40,056 bases of DNA from Treponema sp. (GTDB lineage Bacteria; Spirochaetota; Spirochaetia; Treponematales; Breznakiellaceae), in the NCBI GenBank assembly GCA_031288975.1, contig JAITQK010000066.1:1-40056 (forward strand), given 5' to 3'. Positions 1,718 through 24,221 of this stretch are shown one piece after another. The position numbers and the translations under genes were made by a program. Each line of letters opens with the position of its first letter. The stretch's first letter is position 1. The notes beneath the pieces were generated by a model. It did no database searches. It worked only from the letters and a program-made list of their open reading frames with translations, and had not been told where the DNA came from.

Positions 1718-3586
1718 TCATAAACCGGGGCGGGCTAGGCGGAAACCGAGGCTGTTGTACCGGAGAGACGGGGTGCTGCTGTTCCGTAACGCCGAGCGCA
1801 GGTACTGGCCGCTGTTGTTCCAGCCCCCGCCGCGTTCAACGCGGTACGTGCCCGAGGACGCGCCCAAGGGATCAGTCTGAGCGCCGCTCGAATAACTCCC
1901 ATACCAATCCCAGCACCACTCCCAGACATTGCCGTGTAGGTCGTACAAGCCCCACGCATTCGCCGCAAAACTACCCACCGGCGCAGTATTTACATACCCA
2001 TCCCGTATATTGACGATAGTCCAGTCAGGATTTCTTTCTTTTGCAGTTAGATCCGCTACATTCGCTTTCCCTGCCAGCGATTCCGCCGTGGACCCGCTAT
2101 TATACGCCGTCGTTGTTCCCGCACGGCAGGCGTATTCCCATTCAGCTTCAGTGGGCAACCGGTAGCCATTGGTGTTCCGGTTCCACGTTACATTAGTGCC
2201 AGACACCGTATACGCAGGCGTCAAGCCTTCCTTGCGGCTCCGGGCGTTGCAGTATTCCACCGCCTCAAACCAGCTTACCTGCTCTACCGGCAGGTTGTCG
2301 CCCTTGAAAGAGCTGGGATTCTTCCCCATAAGCGCCGCGTATTCCTTCTGCGTTACCTCGTACTTCCCCATATAGAAAGAACTCACCGTTACCCGATGCT
2401 GAGTTTCATCACTATCCCGCCCCGTCTCCGACGCCAGACTTCCCATCATAAACGTCCCGCCGTTGATCCGCACCATGTCGTTGGGGACATTCGGCACAGC
2501 GGCGACAGTCAGTACCGTTACCACCGGCGACTTCCCGCTCTCCTCACTCCCCCTCACTGTAGACACCCAGAAGTAATAGGTTGTCCCGCTTGCCATACCC
2601 GTTACGTCCATGGATGTTCCGGTTGCCAGATTCCCCAAGGTACTCGCACGGGCTGGATCATTCTGCGTGTTGTAATAGACCTTGTAATTCACCCCAGACC
2701 CTGCGCTGTCCCAGTTCAGCGTTACACGGTCCGTGCCCGAGGTTCCCGCCCGCACATTCCGGGGAGCCTGGGGAGCTTGGGGCGCCATTACCACCCGCGC
2801 TGGCGCTGGTTGTGGAGCAGGCGCTGGCTGGGGCGCGGTCTCGCCCAGATACACGCTTCCAAAGAACTGGTTGTACACGGCGGGGATCTGTTCCCGGTTG
2901 CTGGCACTGGATACATCAGCGCCGGTACGTCGGAACACTTCGCTTACCTCAAGCCCAGGTGTTCCCAGATGCTTGAGCAGTTGGCTGGTAAACAGACCGT
3001 TCCGTCCGGTGCCGTCTGCAGCGGTTTTCCCTGCGCTGGTGGCATATACCACGATGCTGTCCGCTGGCTGACTCCCTATCACCTGTAAACCCCTCGTCCC
3101 GGTCCTGCCCCAGCTAAAGGGATTGTCCCGACACGCATCCAGCACCACGATGTTGAGGGCGTTCCCCGCGGCGTTCAGTTCGTCCAGCACCGCCTGTACG
3201 TGCAGCGCCTTGGTACGAAGGAACGACTCAGCTTTGATGTCCGCGTACACCGGGATCAGGTAGTTCTGCCCATTGGACTGCACCCCATGCCCGGCATAGA
3301 AGAAAAAGCCGTAGGCGCTGTTACTGGCGCTCAGGCGGTTCTTCATGCGGATTACCGCGTTTTCCATACGGTCAAGGTTGCCGTCCAGCACTTTGTCCAC
3401 CTGAAACCCCAGCCGCTGTAGGGTTGTGGCTATATCATTGGCGTCATTCACCGGGTTATTGAGCCGGGTAACGCTGGTATATGCCGCGTTCCCGATAACC
3501 AGGGCATATTTCTGCTGCGCCGATAGCACCCAGAGGGGGAAACATGCCAGGGCCAGGAAAACCAAAAAAGTCTTGAGTGAAGTCAT
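1718..3586 (-). CDS. Secreted multidomain protein. Signal peptide, caspase-like (peptidase C14) domain, Pro/Ala-rich linker, fibronectin type III domain, and a C-terminal formylglycine-generating-enzyme (FGE)-sulfatase / SUMF1-type domain
   Basis: Start trimmed to the ATG at 3586, which has AAGGAG 7 nt upstream. N-terminus 'MTSLKTFLVFLALACFPLWVLSAQQ' is a signal peptide. Caspase His/Cys dyad motifs 'YAGHG' and 'LDACRDNP'. Linker 'APQPAPAPQPAPA'. FN3-like 'TLNWDSAGSGVNYKVYYN...YYFWVSTV'. FGE-sulfatase motifs 'RINGGTFMMGS', 'YEVTQKEY', 'GYRLPTEAEWEYACRAG', 'GNVWEWCWDWY', 'RGGGWN'. Confidence 0.8.
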   Translation of the reverse strand: MTSLKTFLVFLALACFPLWVLSAQQKYALVIGNAAYTSVTRLNNPVNDANDIATTLQRLGFQVDKVLDGNLDRMENAVIRMKNRLSASNSAYGFFFYAGHGVQSNGQNYLIPVYADIKAESFLRTKALHVQAVLDELNAAGNALNIVVLDACRDNPFSWGRTGTRGLQVIGSQPADSIVVYATSAGKTAADGTGRNGLFTSQLLKHLGTPGLEVSEVFRRTGADVSSASNREQIPAVYNQFFGSVYLGETAPQPAPAPQPAPARVVMAPQAPQAPRNVRAGTSGTDRVTLNWDSAGSGVNYKVYYNTQNDPARASTLGNLATGTSMDVTGMASGTTYYFWVSTVRGSEESGKSPVVTVLTVAAVPNVPNDMVRINGGTFMMGSLASETGRDSDETQHRVTVSSFYMGKYEVTQKEYAALMGKNPSSFKGDNLPVEQVSWFEAVEYCNARSRKEGLTPAYTVSGTNVTWNRNTNGYRLPTEAEWEYACRAGTTTAYNSGSTAESLAGKANVADLTAKERNPDWTIVNIRDGYVNTAPVGSFAANAWGLYDLHGNVWEWCWDWYGSYSSGAQTDPLGASSGTYRVERGGGWNNSGQYLRSALRNSSTPSLRYNSLGFRLARPGL

Positions 3587-3613
3587 AGAATACTCCTTCT
3601 TAGTATGATAATT

Positions 3614-3627
3614 CCAGTATACCACAG
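3614..3627 (-). promoter_or_regulatory. Extended -10 promoter element (TGgTATACT) about 30 nt upstream of the caspase-FGE start
   Basis: Minus strand reads '...gctgTGgTATACTgg...aagaaggagtattctATG'. Confidence 0.4.
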
Positions 3628-16673: not shown

Positions 16674-17426
16674 ATGAAAACGACCGTATGTATGGTTACA
16701 TGGTTATTGACGGTATCGGCCTTGGTTATGCCGGTATATGCACAGATGCCCTCGGCACTGGAACTGTTGCAGCGGGTGGACAACAACGAGGTCTACGACA
16801 CCATTGAGTACGAAGGGGAGATGATCATCGATTATCAGAACCGGCGCTATGTGAAGACCATGAAGGCTTATGCGCGAAGCAATAACGATAGCTTCATCGA
16901 ATTTCTCAATCCCGAAGACCGGGGAACCAAGTACCTCAAGCAAAAGGGCCGCCTGTACGTGTATTCCCCGGACACCGAAGAGGTGATGCTCATCTCCGGG
17001 CACATGCTCAAGGAATCCATGATGGGGTCAGACCTCTCCTACGAGGATACCATTGACAACGAGAAGCTGTCGGTCCGCTATGCCCCGGTACTTGCCGGTT
17101 CCGAGACCTACAACGGCAGACCGGCCTGGGTACTGTATCTCACCGCCAAGAACCTTAAGCGGGAAAGCTATCCCAAGCAGAAGCTTTGGATCGACCAGGA
17201 AAACGGCGATATGCTCCATTCCGAGCTGTTCGCCCTTTCAGGGTCCAAGCTCAAGGAATCTACCCTCATTCGGGTTGAAACCATAGGGGGACGCCGGTTC
17301 CCTGTGGAATTGGAAATGCGGGACCTCCTGCGGCGGGGAAGCAAGACCACCTTTGTGATGCGTAATGTGGTTCTGGACAAGCCCATCCCGGATTCGGTGT
17401 TTAGTCAGCGGAACCTGGGACGGTGA
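16674..17426 (+). CDS. LolA-like outer-membrane lipoprotein-sorting (carrier) protein family
   Basis: Signal peptide 'MKTTVCMVTWLLTVSALVMPVYA', size about 250 aa, and a 'YSPDTEEVMLISGHMLKESMMGSDLSYEDT' region typical of LolA_like/DUF1571-type proteins found beside FtsX transporters. GGAGG RBS. Confidence 0.6.
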   Translation: MKTTVCMVTWLLTVSALVMPVYAQMPSALELLQRVDNNEVYDTIEYEGEMIIDYQNRRYVKTMKAYARSNNDSFIEFLNPEDRGTKYLKQKGRLYVYSPDTEEVMLISGHMLKESMMGSDLSYEDTIDNEKLSVRYAPVLAGSETYNGRPAWVLYLTAKNLKRESYPKQKLWIDQENGDMLHSELFALSGSKLKESTLIRVETIGGRRFPVELEMRDLLRRGSKTTFVMRNVVLDKPIPDSVFSQRNLGR

Positions 17427-17506
17427 AGTTCGGTAAATAGTTAATAGTGAGTAGGTGATAGCACATCACTCCTGTTCACTATTCTCTATAATAAGGGAGA
17501 AATGGA

Positions 17507-18688
17507 ATGATACGGTTGTTGATTGTGGTTTTGTTTATCGTAACAGCGGCTTTTCCAGCACTTGCCGCTGATGGGCCGGTGCTTTCCGGTCTCTTGGATA
17601 CCATCGTGAACCTCGGCGCCGGCGCTGGGGAAGCAGATGACTTTTCTTATGGCATAGAAGAGGTGGCCAATCTACGGATGCAGACGAAAATCAAGGATAA
17701 GGGGGTGTTTTACGGGGCCTTCAACCTCATCGCTGTCTCCGGGACTGCCCTGGGGGGCATGAACGCTGGTACGTATCCAGGGCTATCCACCTCAGCCTTA
17801 GTAGCCGGTGAAAACTACGCCGCTGCCCTGGAACTGGAACGGCTCTATTTCCGGGTTACCGGTGAATACCTCGATGTGGATACCGGACTCATGCGCCTGG
17901 CCTTTGGTTATGGGCAGGTCTTCGGCTCCTCCGACTTCCTCAACCCCAGAAACCCCCTGTTCCCCGACGCCCGGCCACGGGGGATCCTGGGAAGCGCCGT
18001 TTCGGTCTATCCTACGGATACGGCCAAGGTACTTGCCTTTGCCACGGCCCCGAAAAATCCCTTCAACAGCAACGGTAACGGGTTCCTGTTCGGGCTTTCC
18101 GGGGACAAGCATTGGGATAAGGTGAGCCTGCAGGTCCTCTATGCCTTTGAGACACCCCAGGAAGCTTCCTCCTTTGGGATTCACCGGGGAGGACTGTCCC
18201 TGAAGGCGGACGTTGAAGTGGGGCTTGTGGCGGATATGCTCTACACCTACAACCACGAAACCACCGAGGGCATTGACGGGCTTTCTGTTGGTGCGGGGTT
18301 TGACTACTCCTTTTACGACGGGAATTTTTATGTGCTTGCGGAATACCTGTTTAACGGTTCCACCTCAGCCACTGCCCGGAGCGCCGGCAATCCAACCGGG
18401 TTTGCCAACCAGCATTACCTCTACGCCATGCTTCGCTACGCTTTTAACGACTATACCAGTACAAGCCTTGCCTGTATCGTCTCTTTTGAGGATATTTCCT
18501 TTGCCCCTATCCTCAGTGTGGAACACGAGCTGTTTCAGGGCCTGACCCTGAGTTTCTCAGGCCGGCTGCCCCTGGACCGGGACGTATTTTCCGGGAATGG
18601 CGAGTGGGGAGAGCTAGGCCCGATTCCACCAGGCGTGGAAGCCGGGACCCGTTTTCTGTTTACCGCCAAGGCGCGGCTGCGGTTTTAG
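17507..18688 (+). CDS. Predicted outer-membrane beta-barrel protein (signal peptide, C-terminal Phe)
   Basis: 'MIRLLIVVLFIVTAAFPALA' signal peptide. Alternating aromatic/hydrophobic strands. C-terminal '...FLFTAKARLRF' ends in Phe, as OMP beta-barrels do. Confidence 0.6.
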   Translation: MIRLLIVVLFIVTAAFPALAADGPVLSGLLDTIVNLGAGAGEADDFSYGIEEVANLRMQTKIKDKGVFYGAFNLIAVSGTALGGMNAGTYPGLSTSALVAGENYAAALELERLYFRVTGEYLDVDTGLMRLAFGYGQVFGSSDFLNPRNPLFPDARPRGILGSAVSVYPTDTAKVLAFATAPKNPFNSNGNGFLFGLSGDKHWDKVSLQVLYAFETPQEASSFGIHRGGLSLKADVEVGLVADMLYTYNHETTEGIDGLSVGAGFDYSFYDGNFYVLAEYLFNGSTSATARSAGNPTGFANQHYLYAMLRYAFNDYTSTSLACIVSFEDISFAPILSVEHELFQGLTLSFSGRLPLDRDVFSGNGEWGELGPIPPGVEAGTRFLFTAKARLRF

Positions 18689-18924
18689 AGGTTTGAGGAT
18701 GGGCCAATAAATGTACCTGATGTTTATTGCTTTGTGTAAGGTCTCCTGTCAAAGGTTTTGAAAGAAGCTCGCTTGCAAAAAAAAGTATGTTCTGAATTGA
18801 AGTTAATCGTAATACCGCTTAACATGGTGTAAAATCTTGTTTAATAGTCAAGCTCTTTCAAAAGAGGCTCAAGAGTTAGTAGTTTGTTTCAAATGAATAT
18901 AGAAAATTAAGGAAGTATCCTTAA

Positions 18925-18958
18925 ATGTTGACTTTCTGTTCATGTTTGGTTATATTCA
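18925..18958 (+). promoter_or_regulatory. Sigma70-like promoter TTGACT-17-TATATT in an AT-rich spacer
   Basis: Read directly as 'TTGACTttctgttcatgtttggtTATATT'. It lies about 140 bp upstream of the IS-remnant ORF. Confidence 0.4.
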
Positions 18959-19094
18959 ACTTGAGAGTGGCAAATGCTCGAATTTATCCGTATTGTAACG
19001 CTCTGTAGGCACTGTATAGAGCAATACGTTTTAAAAAAAAATACACTAATAGAGTGTATTGTAAAGAATTTGCGACTCACAACTATTTAAATAT

Positions 19095-20096
19095 ATGATT
19101 AGATACAAGATTGCAGAGTTTGCGTTTCGTTTAGGGATTTTCGCTGCCACTGTTCGTCGTTGGGAGCGCGCAGGAAATTTACTATATGCAGCTATGCAGG
19201 CTTATGGTTACACACGTATACAAAACTTGAACCGAGCGCATAAGGTTGAGTTTATACTCAACAACGAACAGCGCACGCTTCTCAACAAACACTTTGGTTC
19301 AGCTCTTAACGCTCACGTTACCTCTTGTGAAGTAATCCGCCACTTTGGTACCTCTTTTAAATCGTTCTTCACAGGAAAGACCAAGCACCCCCGCTTTCAC
19401 ACTAAAAAATCCGGTGTCGAAGACAATCGCTCTGTTGAGAACCAAGACGAGGTGATTGGCATAGACCTTGGGATAAAAGAAATGGCTACTTGTTCGGATG
19501 GACCTGTGATAGAAAATCCCAGAATAAGTAATCGATTTGCTTCTCAACTTCGCCGCTATAATAAACGCCTTGCACAGCGTACACAGGGTTCACACCGTTG
19601 GTGGAGGACCGTATATGCCCTGCGAGAGCTACATTATAGCATCGCCTGTTGCCGTAACGGCTACATCCATAAGTTCACTCCTGCTTTCACCGGACAATAC
19701 GGTGTTATAGGTTCAGAGGACTTGAACGTACAAGGCATGGCTCAAAACCATCACCTTGCTCGTTCAATCTTGGATGTATCTTTTTACGAGATTGGTAGGC
19801 AGTTGAGTTACAAAGCAAAAGAACTGCGTTTGGTTGGGCATTTCGCTCCATCTTCAAAGACGTGCAGTTCCTGTGGTCATGTTAAGCATGATTTAACACT
19901 CAAGGATCGTATTTACGTCTGTCCTGATTGTGGCCTAGCAATAGACCGTGATTTGAACGGGGCGATAAATATTTCCCGGTGGGCTACACCGGTTCCGGAC
20001 GTGGACAAGAAAGCTCTGGTCTGTGATACGATTAGCGTCGTATCACGTGGGAAACTATGCTTGGATGAAGCGTCAAGTGGACTTCAATGTGCGTAA
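19095..20096 (+). mobile_element. tnpB: IS607/IS605-family remnant: a single ORF in which an IS607 TnpA MerR-type HTH N-terminus is fused in frame to a shortened TnpB (OrfB) with intact RuvC-I/II/III and zinc-finger motifs
   Basis: 'KIAEFAFRLGIFAATVRRWERAGNL...GYTRI' resembles the MerR HTH and GHRRY box of IS607 serine-recombinase TnpA. TnpB N-terminal motif 'VEFILNNEQRTLLNKHFG'. RuvC-I 'IGIDLGIK'. RuvC-II 'GSEDLNVQGM'. Zn finger 'CSSCGHV...CPDCG'. RuvC-III 'DRDLNGAINI'. The sequence is AT-rich relative to its neighbours. The TnpA catalytic domain and part of the TnpB middle are missing. Confidence 0.75.
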
Positions 20097-20130
20097 GCAG
20101 ATTGGTATAAGTTCCACATAGCAGGTAAAA

Positions 20131-22332
20131 ATGAAACTCAAATTCAAGTTGAGCATTATTGTTATCATGATTCTGGTGGCTGTTGTGGGTGGACTGTCCA
20201 CCCTGATCCTTACCCAAGCGGCATCAATGGTCTTGAACCTTTCAAGAGCAAGTATGGTTCGTCTCACGGAGAAGGAGGCTGCGTATCTCCAGGGCCGAGA
20301 AGAGGGCTACCTCCGGGTGGCCCATGTGATGGCAGGCTTTATGGGCAACTTTGAACTGATCGAACCGGAGCAGCGGCGGGACCAGTTTGACCAGTTCATG
20401 CAAGCCACCCTGTCCTCGGAGCCGAACCTGGTGGGGATATTCGCGATCTTCAAGCCCAATGCCCTGGACGGTTTGGACGCCCAGTACCGGGGAGCACCGG
20501 GTTCGACTGCCGAAGGGATCTATGCTCCCTTGTTTTCCCGGACTTCCGGGCAGGTAGAACGCCAGACCTACGATGCTGTTCCCACCGCCCTGGAATTGAT
20601 CAATGGGCCTAATAACCGGCAGTCGGTCATAAGGGACCCAGTACCCCAGGTGGTGAAGGGCAAGAATACCTATACGATCCGCTTTGGCGTACCAATAATC
20701 AACAACAGCAATAATCAGGTAATTGGTTTGGCGGGGATCAATCTTCAGATCGATGCCATGCAGCCCCTTATTGAGAAAACCCTCAGAGAAAATAAGGACA
20801 TCAGCACTATGGCGGTTTATGCCGGTGACGGTACCATCATCGGCAGTTATAAGGCGGACCGGGTAGGCAAAAATGTCCGGCAAGCGGACGCCAGACTCTA
20901 CGAACACTACCTTGACAAAGCGGTTGACACGATAATGGCGCCTGATAAAACCACTCAATTACAGGTATATTCGGATGACCTGAAAACCAACCTGGAGCTA
21001 GTTCTGGTATCCTTTCCCATAGCAGAGGCTGGCTCCTGGACCGTCATGATTGGCACCCCGGAGAATGTAATCCTTCAAAATGTCCATAATTTAACCCGTA
21101 TTGTTATAATTATCTCGGTACTTATGGCTGTTGTGGTAGCGGGAATCATTTCCTTCGTCCTCAGTTCCACCGTCAAACCCATTATCAATGTGGTGGAGAC
21201 CTTAAAGGACATTTCCGAAGGAGAAGGGGACCTGACCAGAACCGTGGATGTCCATTCCCAGGATGAAATAGGCGATTTGGCCCGGTACTTCAACAAAACG
21301 CTGGCGAAGATCAAAAATCTGGTTGTTACCATTAAACATCAGGCAGTGGCCCTCTTTGACATCGGCAACGAGCTTGTTAGCAACATGACTGAAACCGCCA
21401 CAGTCATCCATGAGATCACCACCCATATCCAGAATATCAAGGGCCGGGTCATCAACCAGAGCGCATCGGTGACCGAGACCAACGCCACTATGGAGCAGAT
21501 AACCGGCAATATCGACAAGCTCAACGACCATATTGAAAACCAGACCTCCAGCGTGTCCAAGTCTTCCAGCGCTATCGAAGAGATGATCGCCAACATTAAT
21601 GCGGTCACCCAGACCCTGGTCAGGAACGCCCAGAGCGTCCAGGACCTTCTGGAATCCAGCGATGTGGGCCGTACGGGCCTTCAGGAAGTGGCGACCGACA
21701 TTCAGGAAATCGCCCGTGAATCCGAAGGACTTTTGGAAATCAACGCGGTGATGGAAAATATCGCGAGCCAAACCAATCTGCTTTCGATGAACGCCGCCAT
21801 TGAGGCTGCCCACGCCGGAGAAGCTGGGAAAGGCTTTGCCGTAGTAGCCGACGAAATTCGCAAACTCGCAGAAAATTCCAGTGAGCAGAGCAAGACTATC
21901 AGTACGGTACTGAAGAAGATCAAAGAATCTATCGATAAGATCATCAAATCTACCGATGCGGTACTGAACAAGTTTGAAGCCATTGACGGCGGAGTAAAGA
22001 TGGTTTCCGAACAGACGGAGAATATTCGTAACGCCATGGAAGAACAGAGCGTGGGTAGTAAACAGATTCTGGAAGTTATGGGCCAGCTCAGCCAAATCAC
22101 CCAGATGGTCAAGGGAGGTTCCGAAGAGATGCTTGAAGGCAGTAAAGAGGTTATTCTGGAAGCGAAGAACCTGGAAATGGCGACCCAGGAGATCACCAAC
22201 GGGATGAACGAAATGGCGACCGGCGCGGACCAGATGAATATCGCGGTCAAGCGGGTGAACGAGATCTGCGGTGAGAACAAGGAAAGCATCAATGTCCTGG
22301 TCAAGGAAGTTTCCCGGTTTAAGGTCGAATGA
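20131..22332 (+). CDS. Methyl-accepting chemotaxis protein (TM, periplasmic dCache_1-like domain, TM, HAMP, MCP signalling domain)
   Basis: N-terminal TM '[20 protein letters not shown]', second TM '[21 protein letters not shown]', HAMP '[31 protein letters not shown]', and the highly conserved '[32 protein letters not shown]'. Confidence 0.9.
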
Positions 22333-22432
22333 AACCAGGGCCTCTAACCAAAAAAGGGTGCTTTTTCCCGTTCCTGGTCTAGACTATCCACCCAGGAAAT
22401 CGGTATACTATGCTTAATTGGAGGGTTATCGA

Positions 22433-22807
22433 ATGGCTGAAAACAATCAGGGACCCGCTACCGATGATGGAGTTATCTATGTAAATCAGGCGGAAGGTTT
22501 GCAGCGGGTACTGAATAACATGAAGCTGTATGTAAAATTATTAACAAAGTTTAAGGTGGATATTAATCTCAATGAACTTATTACCCTGGTACAAGTGGAG
22601 GATTATGAGAATGCCCAGGTTAAAGCCCATACCATCAAGGGGATTGCCGCGAATTTGTCATTAATCGAGCTTTTTAAGCAGACCAGGGCATTGGAAGAGC
22701 AGATTAAAAATAAAGCGGCGATTGAGGAGGCAGTATTGGAAACCTTGCAGGCATGTTATCGTGAAACTATCAGAAGTATTGATACCCTCATAGCGCACCA
22801 TGGCTGA
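22433..22807 (+). CDS. Hpt (histidine phosphotransfer) domain protein
   Basis: 'AHTIKGIAANLSL' matches the HxxKG Hpt signature. Start trimmed to the ATG at 22433 (GGAGGG RBS). Confidence 0.65.
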   Translation: MAENNQGPATDDGVIYVNQAEGLQRVLNNMKLYVKLLTKFKVDINLNELITLVQVEDYENAQVKAHTIKGIAANLSLIELFKQTRALEEQIKNKAAIEEAVLETLQACYRETIRSIDTLIAHHG

Positions 22808-23861: not shown

Positions 23862-23873
23862 CCATTCACTACG

Positions 23874-24221
23874 TTGGAGGTGGCGGGAGTCGAACCCGCG
23901 TCCTAATACGCGAAATACACGCCTCTACAGGTTTATCCGTACATTACATTGTCGGGACGGGCTTAACTGCACGGCATGTGGCCCATCCGTATTCCGGAGT
24001 TGTCTCGTCGCCCCCCGTCCGGAAACAGAGCTTGACCAGCCTTGATTGCGACGGAAATTCGGCTCCTCAAGGCGGCGGAGCCGGTTCCCGCGCTCTACTG
24101 CTTACGCAGCGAGAGCGTAACTGTCATAGTCGGCAGTTAAATTGTTGCCGAATGTTAGGAGATCGGCACTCCACCTGCAGCCTGCACCCCGAATCGTACC
24201 AGTCGAAACCGGTGCACCCCC
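23874..24221 (-). ncRNA. ssrA: tmRNA (ssrA), ~348 nt
   Basis: Minus strand 5' 'GGGGGTGCACCGGTTTCGACTGG...' and 3' tRNA-like '...GGACGCGGGTTCGACTCCCGCCACCTCCA'. The acceptor stem GGGGGTG/CACCTCC pairs. Internal tag ORF '...GCC GAC TAT GAC AGT TAC GCT CTC GCT GCG TAA' reads (GNNLT)ADYDSYALAA*, ending in the canonical ALAA. CCA is not encoded. Confidence 0.85.

Follow-up and report, generated by a model that had tools for sequence, protein, structure and literature searches.

The analysed window, a 40,056-nt stretch of a Treponema MAG contig whose host replicon is a termite-gut-type Treponema chromosome, carries a 333-aa open reading frame (ORF) at 19095..20096 on the forward strand. The ORF is preceded by a porin-like gene (17507-18688) and followed by the gene for a 733-aa methyl-accepting chemotaxis protein (MCP; 20131..22332, +); the NCBI product name for the 333-aa protein is 'transposase' alone. 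The non-coding stretch 5' of the ORF, described as about 400 bp in a first-pass annotation made from the letters of the sequence, measures 406 nt (18689-19094), and the gap between the stop codon and the MCP ATG (20131), given there as 35 bp, is indeed short and measures 34 nt. The element to which the ORF belongs extends from approximately 18921 to 20124, limits that are set by the ends common to the window and a second relic, L002, described below; the MCP gene lies outside the element, with its ATG 6 nt past the right end. Relative to its flanks the element is AT-rich, as had been claimed, with a GC content of 0.31 in the leader (18921-19094) and 0.46 in the ORF, whereas the upstream gene is at 0.57 and the MCP gene at 0.51; the spacer that precedes the element (18689-18920) stands at 0.34. 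An independent Logan assembly is 100% identical to the window over 16997-21289, which rules out an assembly artefact. Elsewhere in the window, we recorded a full-length tmRNA gene at 23872-24221 (-; Rfam RF00023, 149 bits) and a 635-aa ORF at 1718-3625 (-; 634 aa scanned) that combines a caspase domain (Peptidase_C14) with fn3 and FGE-sulfatase domains.

The first 44 codons of the ORF (19095..19226, +) correspond, by profile and tblastn matches, to the MerR-like winged-helix of an IS607 serine recombinase, TnpA. The profile matches are weak, both for the Pfam MerR family (aa 5-30, E 0.008) and for the NCBIfam IS607 transposase model (aa 8-51, E 0.094). At the locus L005, whose TnpB is 56% identical to that of the window, a TnpA with MerR and Resolvase domains is encoded immediately upstream, and the window N-terminus aligns with it at LGIFAATVRRWERAGNL / LGVHSETLRRWERSGKI (9 of 17 residues identical, E 5e-6). 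Searched by tblastn against the six frames of the window, the L005 TnpA finds its best match at 19110-19181, in the frame of the ORF (E 0.007). Residues 1-45, used as a tblastn query against approximately 170 TnpB loci, returned approximately 20 matches, and those that were checked lie upstream of the tnpB match; the best of them, at L030 (56% over 27 aa, E 8.6e-6), opens a 207-aa ORF with the typical IS607 TnpA sequence MTYKTTEFAKRLGVSPDTLRRWDREGKLV..GGHRIY..YCRVSS. Since residues 1-50 of IS607-family TnpA constitute the winged-helix DNA-binding domain (PMC6188088), the window stub would be that domain alone. The ORF has no Pfam match to the Resolvase domain, and no recombinase gene or domain was found anywhere in the window, where intact TnpA matches by tblastn the N-terminal 24 residues only. 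The alignments with L005 and L030 thus bear out the earlier proposal of an IS607 TnpA-like N-terminus, which is fused in frame to tnpB with the recombinase catalytic domain deleted. With that domain absent, the element would be unable to move by itself.

The remaining 289 codons and the stop (19227..20096, +) are an internally deleted tnpB, as established by profile alignments and by alignments with relatives. Pfam detects HTH_OrfB_IS605 at aa 46-70, OrfB_IS605 at aa 108-218 and a Cas12f1-like TNB zinc ribbon at aa 230-293, and the NCBIfam TnpB models are matched by their C-terminal halves only (for example, positions 189-389 of 389). The RuvC triad is retained, with D124 in GIDLG (codon 19464-19466, +), E208 in SEDLN (19716-19718, +) and D286 in DRDLN (19950-19952, +), and so is the zinc finger, C257xxC260 plus C276xxC279 (19863-19874 and 19920-19931, +). 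The three residues align with D191, E278 and D361, the catalytic residues of the ISDra2 TnpB (PMC10097598), in an alignment of the RuvC and TNB domains with an E value of 3e-27. Every RuvC motif named by the first-pass annotation, RuvC-III included, is accordingly present on alignment, as is the CxxC..CxxC pair, and its description of the TnpB part as about 290 aa lacking some of the middle region was accurate.

The extent of this loss is apparent from a comparison with the closest intact relative, P0002, a phage-borne TnpB of 396 aa that is 73% identical to the relic and aligns end to end with the ISDra2 TnpB (residues 4-375). The first deletion corresponds to P0002 residues 27-69 (43 aa, 129 nt; junction 19304/19305) and the second to residues 107-166 (60 aa, net 180 nt; junction 19410-19415), for a total of 103 codons lost. 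In the numbering of ISDra2 TnpB, in which REC spans residues 13-116 and WED residues 1-12 plus 117-176 (PMC10097598), the deleted regions are approximately 29-73 (REC) and 116-175 (WED); by this mapping, the relic protein has lost essentially all of the WED β-barrel, along with the first half of REC. In ISDra2 the TAM is read by Y52, S56, K76, F77, Q80, T123 and N124, and the WED domain also holds stem 4 and the pseudoknot of the omega-RNA (PMC10097598). The equivalents of four of these seven residues (Y52, S56, T123 and N124) lie in the deleted parts of the relic. Binding of the omega-RNA scaffold, TAM recognition and the holding of the guide-target heteroduplex all fall to WED and REC; the ISDra2 structure therefore makes it very unlikely that the relic protein works as an RNA-guided nuclease despite its D-E-D triad and zinc finger, and the retained triad would not make it a compact nuclease. 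AlphaFold predictions, computed from the same shallow nine-sequence alignment, were uninformative, with the relic at a mean pLDDT of 50.6 and the intact control at 53.3.

The left-end-proximal segment, 18921..18959 (+), is the leftmost sequence in common with the L002 relic (L002 5884-5922, 87%), and the left terminus is placed at 18921 solely as the limit of this homology. The segment contains the promoter that had been noticed from the outset, a sigma70-like TTGACT-17-TATATT at 18928-18956 with 10 of 12 matches. It is followed by a 124-nt leader segment (18960..19083, +) that is missing from the L002 relic and that includes a terminator-like hairpin (19000-19022) plus a T/A run. A second hairpin in the leader, reported in the first-pass annotation as a 7-bp stem at 19039-19058, is present close to that position and has a stem of 8 bp (19040-19047/19053-19060). 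The right end at 20124 is where homology with L002 stops (...CATAGCAG). Elements of the IS607 family have no terminal inverted repeats and make no target duplication, and a GG dinucleotide is present at their termini and target (PMC6188088). No terminal inverted repeat was found in the element; at the junction of right end and flank, the window has a GG (20124-20125) and L002 has none. Within the right end, TGGTATAAG (20103-20111) resembles an extended -10 that faces the MCP start codon 20 nt downstream, and the same sequence belongs to the conserved 3' stem of the omega-RNA.

A 181-nt segment (19944..20124, +) holds both the omega-RNA scaffold and the right end; it is delimited by covariation and by the end of the L002 homology, and it covers the last 51 tnpB codons (stop included) and 28 nt beyond the stop. 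The fold is composed of a hairpin with the stem CCGGUG/CACCGG at 19976-19992 (in window coordinates taken from the alignment columns), a long-range stem, inside which lies a variable hairpin, and a 3' stem. In an alignment of seven sequences, compensatory changes were observed in 17 of 26 pairs, with 90.5% of cells paired versus 32-45% when the partners were slid. A covariance model derived from these seven sequences matched the tnpB 3' end in almost all of 99 other loci; in a 50-sequence alignment, itself fitted to the model, 94.6% of cells were paired versus 35-47% slid, and all 26 pairs covaried. Synonymous divergence drops sharply over the last 50 codons. A search of 18600-20300 against Rfam, at gathering thresholds and with a relaxed E-value cut-off, returned nothing beyond chance snoRNA matches. 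From the covariation, we predict that a cognate omega-RNA is encoded at the tnpB 3' end and right end of the relic, and the structure that the first-pass annotation had suggested looking for is thereby located. Its expectation that any right end or omega-RNA would have to overlap the MCP gene was mistaken, with both contained in 19944-20124, before the ATG. As the scaffold lies within the 3' end of the ORF and the following 28 nt, only the guide of a read-through transcript would touch the MCP gene. Judging from the TnpB/omega-RNA architecture in PMC10097598 and the position of the right end, this would-be guide segment of approximately 16 nt would fall in flanking DNA at 20125..20140 (+), include the MCP start codon at 20131 and reach the first MCP codons.

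Copies of the omega-RNA module were also observed apart from a tnpB gene. The phage-like contig L001 (1383-1561 and 6001-7205), on which the closest intact TnpB is flanked by portal and capsid genes, has in addition an intergenic solo module. This module carries the terminal ~175 nt of tnpB together with the right end, is approximately 95% identical to the contig's own copy and scores 176 bits with the omega-RNA model; it may be a guide-RNA locus that stands alone, or else all that remains of a second element. In two cyanobacterial loci, the omega-RNA model matched away from the main tnpB 3' end (L039 1453-1614; L059 5897-6121), and these additional matches may be further solo guide modules or neighbouring copies.

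The search for additional copies, suggested by the first-pass annotation, found no second copy of the element in the 40-kb window and one sister relic elsewhere. The sister, which encodes the 194-aa protein P0008 (L002 5884-6613), resides in another Treponema MAG and at another locus, where dciA and a radical-SAM gene flank it. The two relics have in common the left-end promoter segment (18921-18959), the start of tnpA (19084-19122), the start of tnpB and the 3' region up to 20124. The L002 copy has undergone three deletions, all unlike those of the window and one of which removes RuvC-I, and its omega-RNA/right-end module is intact. Both copies possess a short stub, and on the simplest reading tnpA was lost before they separated; the occurrence of the tnpA-less form at two loci in two genomes suggests that it spread after that loss. 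Scans of genome, viral and metagenome contigs for closer or intact copies yielded, among the matches listed, only distant relatives (at most 49% identity), none of them an intact copy of the relic's subclade with tnpA, and we therefore infer the ancestral element from L005 and L030.

The relic resides in a block that varies between strains. L167, a contig obtained from a sibling sample, matches the window at 92-94% identity on either side but has no counterpart of approximately 18735-22348 (L167 1268-1337), so that the AT-rich spacer, the relic and the complete MCP gene are all missing. In L167, 157 nt separate the porin-like gene from the Hpt gene, whose counterpart in the window is at 22424-22807. 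Since the relic and the MCP gene are absent together, L167 is no clean empty site, and none was found by way of the MCP homologues, for which homology ends at the ATG and the paralogues are at unrelated loci.

The five internal deletions in the two relics are all multiples of three, with lengths of 129 and 180 nt and, within L002 6001-6585, 24 nt, a large one and 54 nt. If the events were independent, the probability of all five being in frame by chance would be approximately 0.4%, and neither relic has accumulated a frameshift or stop codon. Two of the L002 deletions are flanked by in-phase direct repeats, which explains the in-frame pattern only in part; the pattern hints at some pressure for an open frame. 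By the Nei-Gojobori method, the window and L002 copies differ with a dS of 0.29 and a dN of 0.12 (dN/dS 0.40), while either relic against the intact phage copy gives a dN/dS of about 0.09-0.10 at saturated dS. Of 83 columns that are otherwise invariant, the window ORF deviates at 7 (D189G, L207S and R249H among them), as compared with 2-4 of about 95-99 invariant columns for six of seven full-length relatives. These substitution patterns would fit a partial relaxation of constraint, not full neutrality.

Taken as a whole, these data are best explained, with a probability that we put at roughly 80%, by a non-autonomous, decaying IS607-family element whose protein would be inactive as an RNA-guided nuclease. 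The relic is most probably the outcome of ordinary gene decay and not a new compact nuclease; of the two options that the first-pass annotation had offered, a domesticated or compact TnpB and a decaying insertion sequence, the latter is favoured and the former is disfavoured by the deletions and by the lesions of L002. What has been observed directly is the set of homologies, the map of the deletions, the covariation of the RNA and a sister relic whose lesions are different. The loss of activity and the order of events are our reconstruction, as follows. The ancestor would have possessed a left end with a promoter, a tnpA encoding winged-helix and serine-recombinase domains, tnpB, and an omega-RNA/right-end module overlapping the tnpB 3' end. 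One deletion would have taken tnpA beyond approximately codon 44, joining the stub in frame to tnpB, and two further deletions, of 129 nt and 180 nt, would then have removed part of REC and essentially all of WED. The product of the present ORF would consist of the TnpA winged-helix stub, REC fragments, RuvC, TNB and a C-terminal tail. The left-end promoter, the open frame and the omega-RNA scaffold would survive because the decay is recent and has proceeded mainly by deletion. Several observations sit less well with decay: there is no frameshift or stop, the five deletions are all in frame, the dN/dS of 0.40 is below neutral, and the catalytic triad is intact in the window copy. In addition, the left end is known solely as a homology limit, and the GG terminal dinucleotide expected of IS607 is not clearly present.

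The proximity of the MCP gene raises the alternative that the relic has been exapted as a leader, retained for transcription of the MCP gene and possibly for translation-coupled anti-polarity, in which case the frame would be held open by selection against premature termination and not for the protein. We consider this improbable. No sigma70-like site was found between 19100 and 20131, which leaves the strong one in the left end (18928-18956). MCP homologues, which all share the start and a length of approximately 733 aa, carry a GGAGGTG Shine-Dalgarno sequence and a promoter of their own, as seen in the closest one examined (L170), for which homology to the window starts exactly at the ATG; upstream of the window ATG there is just CAGG, at the right-end/flank junction. 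The gene downstream of the L002 relic is likewise co-oriented, 37 nt past the right end, and the in-frame character of all five deletions is in keeping with such a role. However, the terminator-like hairpin at 19000-19022 lies between the promoter and the ORF, and TGGTATAAG in the right end could itself act as an outward promoter. The in-phase repeats around two L002 deletions partly account for the preserved frame, and the pattern rests on two relics.

That the 333-aa protein has been domesticated, selected for an activity that depends on RuvC and the zinc finger and can dispense with WED, and possibly redirected by the TnpA winged-helix, is highly unlikely. The intact D124, E208 and D286, both CxxC pairs, the open frame with its in-frame winged-helix domain and a dN/dS of 0.40, less than 1, are what such a protein would display. 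Nevertheless, the protein has neither the WED barrel nor the part of REC that reads the TAM, and no other protein of this architecture was found among 759 homologues from a collection of 5.8 billion proteins. The sole sister copy has other lesions and is without RuvC-I, the changes at otherwise invariant positions are non-conservative, and the block is missing from a strain that is 92-94% identical.

Equally remote is the possibility that the relic persists because its omega-RNA is used in trans, as a guide, by an intact TnpB that belongs to the same clade and is encoded at another site, for instance on a phage such as L001. In both relics the scaffold has stayed intact and its hairpins are perfect, and the L001 contig has both an intact TnpB and a solo omega-RNA/right-end module; yet there is no intact TnpB within the 40-kb window, a benefit to the host is not apparent, and the 3' end may have been retained simply because of where the deletions fell and how relics are detected. 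A role as MCP expression leader, as omega-RNA donor to a phage-borne TnpB, or as both would explain the five frame-preserving deletions and the untouched guide-RNA module, and we regard it as doubtful. A TldR-like repressor was rejected, with the RuvC residues present and WED and REC deleted.

Read as a decaying element, the locus is a cautionary and well-resolved case: an ORF with every RuvC motif looks like an ultra-compact TnpB, yet is a deletion derivative without WED, and motif retention alone is insufficient to nominate miniature nucleases. It also offers a snapshot of how an IS607 element may decay, with tnpA lost first, in-frame tnpB deletions following and the omega-RNA/right-end module remaining last, in a clade whose closest intact relative is phage-borne. 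If preservation of the frame is truly selected, the relic would provide an example of an insertion sequence co-opted as a gene leader.

Members of the IS607 family, such as IS607 of H. pylori and IS1535 of M. tuberculosis, carry a tnpA encoding a serine recombinase together with tnpB. The relic resembles them in its gene order, in the MerR-like winged-helix TnpA N-terminus, in a TnpB with RuvC and zinc finger, in an omega-RNA that overlaps the tnpB 3' end and right end, and in that no terminal inverted repeats were seen, and a related intact tnpA-tnpB pair is present in L005. It differs in that the recombinase catalytic domain is absent, tnpA and tnpB form one frame, and tnpB is shorter by 103 codons. 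With the ISDra2 TnpB (PDB 8EXA/8BF8/8H1J), a structurally defined minimal RNA-guided nuclease, the relic aligns over RuvC and TNB and has equivalents of the triad, but it is without the regions ~29-73 (REC) and ~116-175 (WED), which ISDra2 needs for TAM reading and omega-RNA binding (PMC10097598). Like IS1341-type, TnpB-only non-autonomous elements, it possesses tnpB and an omega-RNA without a working transposase; unlike them, it retains a recognisable IS607 tnpA stub, and its tnpB is damaged. Finally, the TldR proteins, nuclease-dead TnpB-like repressors, invite comparison as the relic too is a TnpB derivative beside a host gene, but in TldRs it is the RuvC active site that is lost, with WED, REC and guide binding retained, whereas the relic displays the reverse.
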